Source of the DNA: an uncultured Bacilli bacterium
GTDB lineage: Bacteria; Bacillota_I; Bacilli_A; RFN20; CAG-826
Length of the DNA stretch: 64,000 nt
Direction of reading: 5' to 3'
NCBI GenBank assembly: GCA_944376605.1
Contig: CALWDE010000012.1
Span: 4,360 to 68,359, forward strand
Position numbers and translations under genes: made by a program. The notes under the pieces were generated by a model. The model did no database searches and was not told the DNA's origin. It saw nothing but the letters and a program-made list of their open reading frames with translations. Every line of letters begins with the position of its first letter. Position 1 is the first letter of the stretch. Below, one piece after another: positions 49,692-52,769 of this stretch.

Positions 49692-51494
49692 ATGATTGCT
49701 AAGTTTAAAAGGATAGACGGTATTGCTATAGCAAGTGTGTTCTTCTACTTGCTTATTGTGCTTATGACAGGATTTTTCCTTGATGGAAATTCCTCAATTG
49801 TTGCAGAAGGCAATCCCATTCAGGCTTTAGGACAAGCATTTGCATTCCCAAGCATTGATGCTTCTATGCCTAGTGCGATTTTGCTGATTATGCTTGCGGT
49901 GTATTCTTTGCTTTTTGCAGGGGCAGTAATCTTTGAGATTCGTGTAGCACAATATAAGAATGAGAAAGCAAATTCTTTGAAATGGTGGATGATTTATATC
50001 ATCACTTTTGTCATCTCTTATGGGCTTGCTATTGGTATTGGTACTGCCGCGCATTCTCCCATTGAAGATCCAGTTTTACTTGGAAATTCTTTCTTGTACT
50101 GTGCAGAATCTTTCTTAATCGGTTTCCTTATCTTCTTAGTATTATTCTTAATCGTTTTCTTCCTTGTCTTACTTGTGGTATCCGTTAAGAAGATCCGCAC
50201 TCCTTTAGAAGGGGAAGAAGAGGTTTCCTTATCACATGAAGAACATCAAGAGTTAATTGATGAAGCTAAGGCTAAATTACAAGGTTCTCTTGCTGCTTCT
50301 TTTGGAGGCAATGCAAATATTAGTGGAAGCGCGGCGGGCGCTACCTCTTCTAACGCAAATCAAACTTCTTCTTATGCTGCTTTAGGGAATAAGTCCCAAG
50401 TTTTTCCTGGCTTAACGGAAATTGAAACCCAAGAGTTAAATGCTTCTCCTAAAGAATATAGCGCGGATGGAACGATTTCTCTTCATGAGTTAGCGAGCCG
50501 TTTCCGTATGTATTTAGCAAAAGAAGAAAAACTTTATTACGATATTGAATCCATCCGTTCTTTCTTAGCCGGTATGGCAGCGTCACATTTCTTAATCTTA
50601 GAAGGTTTATCTGGTACAGGTAAATCATCTCTTGCCCGTTATTTCTCTTCCTTTATTGGTGAAAAGAGTTTCTTTGCACCGGTTCAGGCAACTTGGAGAG
50701 ACCGCACTTCTTTATTAGGTTTTTATAATGATTTCTCTCATTCTTATTCAGAAACTCCATTCTTAAAAAGACTTTATCAAGCTAACTTTAGGGAGCGTTC
50801 TATTAACGTCATGGTTTTAGATGAAATGAACATCGCTAGAGTGGAATACTACTTCGCGGATTTCTTATCTATCATGGAATATCCAGAAGAAGACTGGATC
50901 TTAGACATCATGCAACTTCCTTATGGTTTTGAACCTCCCATGCATTTCCAAGATGGCAGATTAACCATTCCTGTTACTACTTGGTTTATTGGTACAGCAA
51001 ATAAAGATGACTCTACCTACACCATTACCGATAAGGTATATGACCGTGCAATCATCTTATCTTTTGATGAACAAAATGAGCCATTCCGCGTAGAAGGAGA
51101 AGCCTCTCCTATTGCGCTTTCTTATCAAGGATTAACAAGTTTATTCCAAGAAGCAGAAGCAAAAGAAGAATATCGTATGAACGCGGAAGATGAAGAAAAA
51201 TTAAATCATTTAGCCGAGTTCTGCTACGATAAATTTGAACTTGCCTTTGGTAACCGTATTCGTAACCAAATGGAAATCTTTGTTCCTGTTTATGTTTCGG
51301 CAGGAGGAAAGAAAGAAGAAGCAATCGACTTTATGTTTGCTAGAAAAGTATTAAGCAAATTAGAAGGCCGGTTTGAAGAATATGTGGGAGAAGGTTTAAG
51401 AGGCTTACTCAAACTTCTTGATTCTTTATATGGCAAAAACGCCTTCCCTTCTTGCCGCGCTTTAATTGCTCATTACTTAAGGAGATTTGCCTAA
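49692..51494 (+). CDS. membrane-anchored McrB-family AAA+ (AAA_5) NTPase: 4 N-terminal TM helices + McrB-like GTPase domain
   Basis: Walker A ILEGLSGTGKSS. Walker B/McrB block VMVLDEMNIARVEYYFADFLSIMEY. IGTANKDDSTYTITDKVYDRAIILSF ~ McrB IGTMNtaDRS...ALRRRF. N-terminal 190 aa hydrophobic. Confidence 0.6.
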   Translation: MIAKFKRIDGIAIASVFFYLLIVLMTGFFLDGNSSIVAEGNPIQALGQAFAFPSIDASMPSAILLIMLAVYSLLFAGAVIFEIRVAQYKNEKANSLKWWMIYIITFVISYGLAIGIGTAAHSPIEDPVLLGNSFLYCAESFLIGFLIFLVLFLIVFFLVLLVVSVKKIRTPLEGEEEVSLSHEEHQELIDEAKAKLQGSLAASFGGNANISGSAAGATSSNANQTSSYAALGNKSQVFPGLTEIETQELNASPKEYSADGTISLHELASRFRMYLAKEEKLYYDIESIRSFLAGMAASHFLILEGLSGTGKSSLARYFSSFIGEKSFFAPVQATWRDRTSLLGFYNDFSHSYSETPFLKRLYQANFRERSINVMVLDEMNIARVEYYFADFLSIMEYPEEDWILDIMQLPYGFEPPMHFQDGRLTIPVTTWFIGTANKDDSTYTITDKVYDRAIILSFDEQNEPFRVEGEASPIALSYQGLTSLFQEAEAKEEYRMNAEDEEKLNHLAEFCYDKFELAFGNRIRNQMEIFVPVYVSAGGKKEEAIDFMFARKVLSKLEGRFEEYVGEGLRGLLKLLDSLYGKNAFPSCRALIAHYLRRFA

Positions 51495-51497
51495 TTT

Positions 51498-52769
51498 ATG
51501 AAGGAAATTGACGCGTCTTCTCTTTTTGCGGAAGGAGAAATGGTCACGGCGAGAGTTCTTCGAAACCGTGTAGACTTTTCTCGCCAAAAGGCGCGTCTTT
51601 CAGCGTCCTCCTCTTTGGAGGATTATCGCTTTTTACTCTCCCTTATGGAAAGTATTGCCCGCAAGCCCTTGCTGCGTGCTACCGCGGAAGATACTCTCAT
51701 CCGTAGTGAAATATCTTCTCATTTATCTCCAGAAGCATTTTTACTTACTTTAAGAGATTCTTCTTTATGGCGAAATAAGGAAGAATACGGCATGGCACCA
51801 GAACTCGTTCATGCAATTCGTTATGAAGATAATATTCATCTTTATGAAAATCTTTTGGTGGTTGCTGCTATTCGTCTTTTAAGGAAAGATTTAGAAAAAG
51901 CTTTAAAAGGGGAAGAAAAGAAAAGAGACTCCATTGAGTCTATCTATCAAAGACAAGAAGCGGTATTTGGCGATCGTTCCTTCTTCATGGATATCTCGGA
52001 GCATAACGCCAAAATTGGCAGGGGACTTACAAGTAAAATTACTTTAAGCAAAGAAGAAGAAACGCTTCGTAAATTACTTCGCAGATTAAATACCATTCGA
52101 CGTTCTTCTTTCTATTTAACGCTGCGGAAAGATCATTTACCAAACCGCTTTATCCCTACCAATATTTTGTTACATCACCCTTTATATCGCCCTATTTATT
52201 CCTTTTATTTGAATCATCAAGATACAGGAAAACTTTCTCCTCTGATTCGCGATATTCGTTTCTTACTTGCTTTAGAACATCTTTTAAAGGCAAAACTTAG
52301 GATGAAATCTACCATGATGCTCTCTTATGAAGATAAGCAGCTAAAGATGGAAAACTTTTCCTTTACAAGAAACGGGGTTCTTATCGAGGTATCCTTGAAA
52401 GAAGAGGTACTTCTCTTCTCTTGCTCTTATAAAGGGTTTACCAAAACGCATAAGATTTATCTTAACGGAGAAGAAATGCCTTCTTCCTACCGTCTAGTTC
52501 TAGAGGGAAGCGGAGGAGAAGCCAATACCCTTTTCTTAAAAGGAGAAAAAGAAATGGAAGGACAGTTTCTATCCTTCCTTAACTCTTGCTCCACTTTAAT
52601 TCCCTTCCACGAAGAGACTTTAAAAGTGTGTCCCGTATGTGGGCACATTCTCTCACCACTTCATCAAGGAGAAGAAGCGACTTGCCATCACTGCCAATCT
52701 TCCTTTGCTTATCTTAACACCCAAGGAAAGGCAGGAGAAATTTGGGTGAAATCATATTGGGGGAGGTAA
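51498..52769 (+). CDS. partner protein of the McrB-like NTPase with C-terminal C4 zinc ribbon (possible McrC-like/DUF2357-like; nuclease motif not evident)
   Basis: Begins 4 nt after upstream stop. YENLLVVAAIRLLRKDL region. CPVCGH...CHHCQ ribbon. Confidence 0.35.
   Translation: MKEIDASSLFAEGEMVTARVLRNRVDFSRQKARLSASSSLEDYRFLLSLMESIARKPLLRATAEDTLIRSEISSHLSPEAFLLTLRDSSLWRNKEEYGMAPELVHAIRYEDNIHLYENLLVVAAIRLLRKDLEKALKGEEKKRDSIESIYQRQEAVFGDRSFFMDISEHNAKIGRGLTSKITLSKEEETLRKLLRRLNTIRRSSFYLTLRKDHLPNRFIPTNILLHHPLYRPIYSFYLNHQDTGKLSPLIRDIRFLLALEHLLKAKLRMKSTMMLSYEDKQLKMENFSFTRNGVLIEVSLKEEVLLFSCSYKGFTKTHKIYLNGEEMPSSYRLVLEGSGGEANTLFLKGEKEMEGQFLSFLNSCSTLIPFHEETLKVCPVCGHILSPLHQGEEATCHHCQSSFAYLNTQGKAGEIWVKSYWGR

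Follow-up and report, generated by a model that had tools for sequence, protein, structure and literature searches.

What would a McrB-type GTPase do when it is anchored in the membrane and encoded in the middle of a set of genes for exported proteins? The question was raised by two adjacent genes, here called A and B, in a 64,000-nucleotide stretch of DNA (the window; contig CALWDE010000012.1 of assembly GCA_944376605.1) from an uncultured Bacilli bacterium; these genes and all features described below for the window lie on its forward strand. McrBC is the textbook GTP-dependent restriction system. Protein A (49692..51494, 600 amino acids, aa) combined an anchor of four predicted transmembrane (TM) helices with a McrB-like AAA+ GTPase of the NxD type, and protein B (51498..52769, 423 aa) was a McrC-type partner with a DUF2357 region, a coiled-coil hairpin, a beta domain and a C-terminal zinc ribbon. 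Comparison of gene order and spacing showed the pair to be a fixed part of a predicted translationally coupled operon of about 15 kb, together with genes for 2-4 secreted proteins, a SipW-type signal peptidase, an ABC transporter, a beta-helix exoprotein and a lipoprotein. The reading favoured here, to which we assign a probability of about 0.6, is that A and B derive from McrBC, lack its nuclease and would act as a GTP-driven membrane switch or motor for the processing and assembly of surface proteins. Two functions had been put forward in the original prediction, made from the DNA letters: a factor acting with the flanking secreted proteins, which was favoured because the synteny was near-invariant, and a stand-alone defence module, which the same synteny with a surface operon disfavoured.

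Both open reading frames (ORFs) were as originally described, with the coordinates, lengths, tight spacing and all the quoted motifs present: 3 nt separated the end of A (51494) from the start of B (51498), and a strong GGAGG site preceded A. The Walker A motif GLSGTGKS (residues 305-312, 50604..50627) was invariant in 47 homologues of A. The Walker B motif VMVLDE (residues 373-378, 50808..50825) aligned with IFIIDE of E. coli McrB, and its residues M374, V375, L376, D377 and E378 were invariant in the same 47-sequence alignment; the longer Walker B-region motif quoted in the original prediction was found at residues 373-387, VMVLDEMNIARVEYY. IGTANKDDS was located at residues 433-441 and YDRAI at 450-454. 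The signature N437-K-D439-D440 (51000..51011) was an NxD(D/E) variant of the McrB NxxD, with D439 invariant, N437 present in at least 90% of the sequences and position 440 D or E. Overall, GLSGTGKS, VLDE, R452 and the block FIGTAN-K-D-(D/E)-ST were invariant or nearly so, and conservation extended to the TM domain: NPIQ in the first outside loop and E82/R84 closing the second helix, E82 being invariant.

The four TM helices of A (residues 7-166, 49710..50189) were supported by hydropathy, by the alignment and by a structural model. A Kyte-Doolittle scan gave four hydrophobic segments in A (approximately 9-29, 58-82, 97-118 and 132-167) and none in B. The AlphaFold2 model of A, built on the 47 homologues (mean predicted local distance difference test, pLDDT, 81.5), placed helices at 7-30, 59-88, 96-119 and 127-166, in agreement with the scan and with the membrane anchor originally proposed. 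It continued with a charged helix at 182-204 (low confidence, pLDDT of about 60), an alpha/beta core at 300-460 and a helical lid at 478-599. No DNA-binding domain was detected in A by Pfam, the first 170 residues being occupied by the four helices. Lysines and arginines were positioned at the N-terminus, in loop 2 and after the fourth helix; because of this distribution an N-in/C-in topology was assigned, so that the NTPase domain is predicted to face the cytoplasm.

The architecture recurred far too often to be due to chance: A had matches in more than 7,500 database proteins (clusters at 90% identity), the best 120 of which were 598-683 aa long, with 94-100% query coverage and 47-98% identity. 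Profile comparison (hhalign) of the A family with E. coli McrB gave a probability of 89.9% (E 1.7e-6) over 163 columns, running from upstream of Walker A, through sensor 1, to the Arg-finger region; comparison with E. coli RavA gave 11.6% over 40 P-loop columns only. The McrB hallmarks first noticed in A were thus borne out by the signature and by the profile comparison, and the grouping with MoxR that had been named as the result to look for against them was not observed. An exhaustive HMMER search with residues 235-600 of A retrieved 8,170 cluster representatives (699 with E <=1e-30), and GTAN.D(D/E) was common to nearly all of the 150 representatives listed. Three architectures were found among those listed: proteins with 4-6 TM segments (~550-700 aa), with 1-2 TM segments (~450-520 aa) and without TM segments (~700-870 aa). 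The NTPase domain of one of the last group, P0175, was 46% identical to that of A (E 2e-84), and its gene followed genes for VWA, PP2C, a Ser/Thr kinase, a UPF1-like helicase and a 532-aa product, and preceded one for a 760-aa DUF2357 protein; this layout matches the Type II/III CoCoNuT arrangement of Bell et al. 2024 (PMC11090510), in which NxD, usually followed by E or D, is the signature defining that branch of McrB (section 7). All 47 aligned members of the A family also matched the PADLOC candidate defence model PDC-M26A (best E 2e-42); the literature search returned no paper mentioning PDC-M26. On these sequence comparisons, A was shown to be a McrB-type AAA+ NTPase of the NxD branch, in which a predicted 4-TM anchor replaces the DNA-binding or coiled-coil N-terminus.

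In 73 of the 75 loci in which genes could be called, the gene immediately after A, usually within 35 nt, encoded a B protein with two CxxC motifs, 12-21 residues apart (mostly 17-18); the remaining two were ORF-calling failures. Word-indexed searches with B returned only 4-6 proteins, so its homologues were drawn from the fetched loci. In the window protein, YENLL was found at residues 116-120, CPVC at 378-381 and CHHC at 396-399. The region homologous to DUF2357 (residues 34-240, 51597..52217) contained the motifs P101/V104/D111/Y116-E117-N118 and T221-N222 (TNIL). Scanned singly, 27 of 53 members of the B family matched Pfam DUF2357, at least eight of them above the gathering score (25-44 bits vs. 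23.3; model positions 85-232 of 251), as had been suspected of the partner from the start; window B alone fell below the Pfam threshold and fitted the family hidden Markov model, built without it, at 2e-68. At the CoCoNuT-type locus, the DUF2357 protein, a putative CnuC, was matched by the B profile (1.1e-32), with YENRF and TNIL shared and the CPxC ribbon covered separately. An antiparallel coiled-coil hairpin was assigned to residues 115-201 (51840..52100) and the zinc ribbon, CPVC...CHHC, to residues 378-399 (52629..52694); the profile of the ribbon resembled L37Ae-type and TFIIB-type ribbons, and sequence and profile searches of the PDB with B gave zinc-ribbon matches only. The structural model of B was based on an 8-sequence alignment (pLDDT 69.5).

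The residues invariant in the 53 homologues of B were P101, E117 and N118 (YEN), N222 (TNIL), Y230 and the four cysteines. No aspartate, glutamate or lysine between residues 240 and 375 was invariant or nearly so in these sequences, and no nuclease family was matched in Pfam scans of window B and of the family members, in line with the absence of an obvious PD-(D/E)xK motif recorded in the original prediction. B was classified as a McrC-type (DUF2357) partner, shown by its family alignment to have no conserved catalytic residues, with a predicted coiled-coil hairpin and zinc ribbon. Its 113 N-terminal residues were modelled with low confidence, yet contained a conserved segment (RSE...LW...PE.VH) which may contact the ring. 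In one B-like DUF2357 protein, P0127 (325 aa), a complete TatA formed the C-terminus in place of the zinc ribbon (Pfam TatA_B_E 4e-14). P0127 was given no weight because it lies on a 1.7-kb contig and is probably a read-through gene call or the result of a chimeric contig; a genuine fusion would be a direct link to protein export.

When one genome per GTDB species was scanned, at least 590 species carried the A gene; among them were uncultured Bacilli and Mollicutes, members of the Acholeplasmatales and Anaeroplasmataceae, Ca. Onthovivens, Ca. Enteromonas, Ca. Scatosoma, "Staphylococcus sp. CAG:324" and some metagenome-assembled Clostridia. The gene context was analysed in 80 loci and showed a near-invariant order: small secreted proteins, SipW, A, B, ABC ATPase, permease, a 792-aa protein (p792) and a lipoprotein of ~360 aa. 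In 70 of 74 loci a SipW gene lay no more than 4.5 kb upstream of A, and the ABC ATPase, the permease and p792 were all present in 56 of the 59 loci with at least 8.5 kb of downstream DNA; the co-occurrence of membrane-anchored McrB with ABC and SipW genes, for which a survey had been proposed, was thereby confirmed. The similarity of A between loci co-varied with that of every other cluster protein (Spearman rho 0.63-0.73), and the genes flanking the cluster were unrelated from one locus to another. In two loci (L076 and L079) the order was shuffled with all the members kept together, A-B lying beside SipW and the ABC genes some 5 kb off.

Some A-B pairs were found in other contexts. In four loci (L050:9941-13031, L070:9443-12498, L080:9449-12620 and L075:4112-7247) the pair, with an A of 555-575 aa and four TM segments and a B of 461-473 aa, was encoded without SipW or ABC genes, immediately after genes for large exported proteins, some of them collagen-like. 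The exported proteins of L050 (two adjacent ORFs, 123 + 536 aa) and L070 (589 aa) had a similar signal, and G-x-y repeats of the collagen type were seen in L050. More distant TM-anchored pairs (P0163, P0165 and P0151), whose partners were clear homologues of B (~1e-60), were encoded among genes for glycosyltransferases, Bac_transf, epimerase and UDP-glucose dehydrogenase, and the L001 cluster adjoined Wzy and Polysacc_synt genes. No defence or nuclease genes were recognisable in the Pfam annotations listed for the variant loci. The cell envelope is the constant theme of the A-B contexts.

Distant pairs of a TM-anchored NxD GTPase and a B-like protein, one of the latter 1,158 aa long, were located at L086:9001-12718, L087:9001-11852 and L088:9001-15009, surrounded by envelope polysaccharide genes (Bac_transf, glycosyltransferases, epimerases and UDP-glucose dehydrogenase) and with no signal peptidase near them. 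In L082:4475-17554, an AAA_5 (492 aa)/DUF2357 (668 aa) pair was followed by a second AAA_5 protein (517 aa, 2 TM segments) with a 669-aa partner lacking a DUF2357 match; the gene after these encodes a product exceeding 3,100 aa.

An envelope role was considered likelier than phage defence because the pair sits in a conserved operon for exported proteins. In the mechanism proposed, A would form a membrane-tethered hexameric ring, like McrB, and the N-terminal DUF2357 part of B would enter this ring and stimulate GTP hydrolysis. The nucleotide cycle would be relayed via the 24 TM helices of the hexamer and their conserved outer loop, and would gate or power the SipW-dependent processing of the co-encoded surface proteins and their assembly into a filament or surface layer; export and anchoring would fall to the ABC transporter, the beta-helix protein and the lipoprotein. 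Alternatively, the cycle could be coupled to the export apparatus of the surface proteins.

Several points weigh against this proposal. Ring formation, stimulation by B and outward transmission were carried over from the McrBC of E. coli and T. gammatolerans. McrB was not retrieved with A by phmmer or profile searches of PDB sequences, in which TM and low-complexity regions produced noise, and no similarity between the B family and E. coli McrC was found by hhalign. To speak of "filament subunits" is to guess from size, paralogy, the type of signal and the linkage to SipW, because the small secreted proteins matched no known family. Some pairs lack both SipW and ABC genes, so the core function of A-B would not strictly need either. 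Finally, the nearest relatives whose contexts have been described (CoCoNuT and PDC-M26) are predicted to be defence systems.

This last point leads to the first rival explanation, in which A and B would be a membrane-tethered anti-phage or abortive-infection system: the zinc ribbon of B would sense invading nucleic acid, the 4-TM domain of A would disrupt the membrane, and the co-location with a surface operon would be incidental or reflect a guard function. TM effectors are common in defence systems. The NTPase domain of A was 40-47% identical to those of the TM-less proteins of CoCoNuT-type architecture (~700-870 aa), one of which, P0175, was checked and sits in a CoCoNuT-type context; A matched the candidate defence model; and DUF2357, YENRF and the CPxC ribbon were common to B and the DUF2357 protein of the CoCoNuT-type locus. 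B also evolved fast, with a median identity of ~26% to its homologues in other loci (vs. ~44% for A), although this divergence resembled that of envelope components of the same operon: the permease (29%) and the small secreted protein s240 (27.5%). Defence genes are typically patchy and lie in variable islands, whereas the synteny that ties A-B to SipW, to the ABC transporter and to the secreted proteins was near-invariant and co-diverging among loci sampled from a family present in at least 590 species, the neighbourhood was of the housekeeping type without defence or mobile genes, and the TM-domain loops held strongly conserved residues. No nuclease or HEPN domain was found in any operon protein by Pfam and NCBIfam scans, which counts against defence, since Bell et al. 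2024 (PMC11090510) report that a CnuC without a nuclease never occurs unless another nuclease accompanies it. A stand-alone defence island was rejected on the conserved operon synteny and the housekeeping neighbours, and the defence explanation as a whole was judged unlikely.

A second rival, to which we give a slighter chance, is that A-B regulates or energises the adjacent ABC transporter, or serves the export of an envelope glycan or lipid, the SipW substrates being a separate passenger function. The gene for the ABC ATPase began 3 nt after B and this order was kept in most loci, and a glycan role would suit both the sugar-related genes around the distant TM-anchored pairs and the Wzy and Polysacc_synt genes abutting the L001 cluster. 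However, A-B was kept without an adjacent ABC transporter in L050, L070, L075, L080 and the distant pairs; the linkage to SipW was as tight as that to the ABC genes; and it was SipW, with the ABC genes ~5 kb away, that remained beside A-B in the shuffled L076 and L079. It is very improbable that A is instead a MoxR/RavA-type AAA+ chaperone with an unrelated adaptor and no McrBC descent: one JGI record names a homologue "MoxR-like ATPase" and Pfam found only AAA_5 in A, below threshold, a family spanning the MoxR and McrB groups, but the match to RavA was confined to the P-loop where that to McrB reached sensor 1 and the Arg finger, the NxD(D/E) signature and the 46% identity to the NTPase of the CoCoNuT-type locus favour McrB, and the partner was DUF2357 plus zinc ribbon with no VWA found in it, so that a MoxR-VWA chaperone pair was largely refuted.

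The assembly of surface proteins thus remained the favoured function, and the pair was compared with the systems already described. Bell et al. 2024 (eLife; PMC11090510, section 7) drew attention to a large clade of NxD McrB GTPases that carry TM anchors and are linked to genes for signal peptidases; they named it CoCoPALM in three sentences and deferred it to a forthcoming publication. The description of this architecture as unusual in the original prediction therefore needs toning down. A-B shared with CoCoPALM the NxD-type McrB-like GTPase with an N-terminal membrane-spanning fusion, the coiled-coil-bearing McrC (DUF2357) homologue, the association with a signal-peptidase-family gene and the size and abundance of the clade. 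It differed in the anchor, an FtsB-like single TM segment plus coiled coil in CoCoPALM and four TM helices plus a short charged helix in A; no Pfam match to DivIC/FtsB was found in the N-terminus of A among the 47 members, with E up to 1. That paper does not mention an ABC transporter, a beta-helix protein, a lipoprotein or substrates with a TGFAAW signal. Because the NxD, signal-peptidase and McrC coiled-coil features were all present, A-B probably belongs to the CoCoPALM group. The literature search found no later description of CoCoPALM, and McrB and SipW were mentioned together in one paper, via an E. coli strain genotype only.

CoCoNuT (CnuB/CnuC) shared with A-B the closely related NTPase domain with the same NxD(D/E) signature, the homology of B with putative CnuC across DUF2357 (YENRF, TNIL) and the CPxC ribbon, the coiled-coil insertion in B, and a nuclease lost or inactivated as in Type II/III CnuC. 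It differed in having a long coiled coil on the GTPase where A has a membrane anchor; A-B, in turn, lacked the HEPN or other nuclease, the helicase and the TerY-P module, and was encoded in a conserved envelope operon rather than a defence island. Canonical McrBC (E. coli EcoKMcrBC and T. gammatolerans McrBC; PDB 6hz4, 6ut5) had in common with the pair the AAA+ fold of the AAA_5 clade, the alignment of Walker A and B, sensor-1 Asn, acidic signature residue and Arg-finger region of A with E. coli McrB, and a B-then-C gene pair with a tight junction. The differences were the NxD instead of NxxD and the absence of a DNA-binding N-terminal domain in A, the absence of PD-(D/E)xK residues and of any match to E. 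coli McrC in B, and the location of A-B outside a restriction or defence context. The matrix-fibre operons tapA-sipW-tasA of B. subtilis and sipW-bsaA-bsaB-bsaC of C. perfringens (PMC11580942) shared a SipW-type peptidase with paralogous secreted proteins of 200-270 aa. They encode no NTPase, McrC-like protein or ABC transporter, and the window secreted proteins had no detectable similarity to TasA/Peptidase_M73.

The remaining genes of the operon in the window were as follows. The first, s268 (43366..44172), encoded a small secreted protein with an N-terminal signal-anchor and an uncertain TTG start, the candidate major subunit, with homologues upstream of SipW in 37 related loci. Directly 3' of it, a terminator-like hairpin (44193..44212; 8-bp stem with 5 G-C pairs and a weak T tract, a consensus match only) could attenuate read-through and lead to an excess of s268, as for major pilin or fibre subunits. 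Its paralogue s240 (44251..44973; signal ...ITGVAFSTWII) had homologues in 53 loci. The third, paralogue-like small secreted protein, s243 (45010..45741; signal ...SIGFSTFAYG), gave no direct BLAST match in other loci; its signal was alignable with those of the family, which have the consensus TGFAxWII at the end of the hydrophobic region. None of the three families matched a Pfam, NCBIfam or PDB-profile entry, those for TasA/Peptidase_M73 and the SipW-cognate signal included. The signal end ...(T/V)GFA(A/S)W(V/I)(I/L)S was present in 109 of 157 proteins encoded upstream of SipW vs. 34 of 228 other N-anchored proteins from the same loci. The pattern in the operon proteins (...TGFA|AW...), a small residue, an aromatic and Ala followed by Ala and an aromatic, resembled by eye the signal ends of TasA (GTWA|AF) and CalY, a likeness used as a lead only.

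The SipW-type (ER/archaeal-type) signal peptidase I (45738..46778) was identified by NCBIfam TIGR02228 (61.6 bits vs. a cut-off of 51.85), the SipW model (6.4e-18) and SEC11A in the PDB (6e-5); its C-terminal tail was unusually long and charged, rich in Glu and Lys. It was followed by an optional member of the cluster, a 964-aa secreted protein (46753..49647) with the same N-terminal signal type (window 46753-46860), found in only ~14 loci and at variable positions. The longest ORF for this protein began at a TTG inside the SipW gene (window 46540-46778); the ATG at 46753 (MTKMKKNN...), which overlaps the 3' end of SipW by 26 nt, is a plausible start.

Downstream of B, the ABC transporter ATPase (52773..53588) was of the DrrA/GldA-like ABC-2 type (Pfam ABC_tran 1.7e-22, TIGR01188 2.4e-50), and its gene was immediately 3' of B in most loci. 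The polytopic ABC permease (53585..55189) was a hydrophobic ORF of 534 aa conserved in 67 loci, and its orthologue in L001 carried Pfam ABC_tran_2. The exported p792 (55186..57564), likewise conserved in 67 loci, had an N-terminal anchor and a predicted right-handed beta-helix region (Pfam Beta_helix 3.3e-5, just under threshold); neither p792 nor the permease had sequence relatives in the PDB. The last gene encoded a 361-aa lipoprotein (57561..58646) with the lipobox LTSC, conserved in 61 loci, with about four internal repeats of ~40 aa of the type "IPQG..G.GI..I" followed by a C-terminal Listeria-Bacteroides repeat (Pfam Flg_new 1.6e-11). These repeats recall the collagen-like N-terminus of the exported protein adjoining A-B in L050. 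From SipW to the lipoprotein, consecutive genes overlapped or were separated by 3-4 nt, except for 44 nt before A.

The neighbours of the cluster were genes for an FeFe hydrogenase, cysS, MgtC, a SpoU methylase and a sigma factor, a housekeeping neighbourhood without mobile or defence genes. At window 34531-38207, a NuoF-like flavoprotein beside the large subunit of the [FeFe]-hydrogenase looked like part of an electron-bifurcating hydrogenase, and the genes further downstream of this pair were those for a HAD-family hydrolase, an unannotated ORF, cysS, MgtC, the SpoU methylase and the sigma factor.

The idea of a membrane-anchored relative of McrBC is not new (PMC11090510), while the anatomy of the operon, the signal motif of the substrates and the variant contexts were not found in the literature searched and give concrete, testable hypotheses. 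A more far-reaching proposal is tentative, and we regard it as doubtful: that the operon is an undescribed machine for the assembly of a surface filament or surface layer in wall-reduced gut Bacilli, in which a GTPase ring derived from a restriction enzyme would have been exapted as a membrane-embedded cytoplasmic motor or checkpoint, driving the SipW-dependent maturation and polymerisation of a new subunit family. A dedicated ABC transporter would form the outer part of this machine together with the beta-helix protein and the lipoprotein. The family occurs mainly in uncultured Bacilli that live in association with hosts, under names such as Onthovivens, Enteromonas, CAG:324, Acholeplasmatales and Anaeroplasmataceae. 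If the favoured reading is true, it would offer a clear example of machinery exchanged between defence and housekeeping: a branch of McrBC that no longer has its nuclease and its DNA reader, has acquired a membrane anchor and is now a fixed part of an operon for the envelope.

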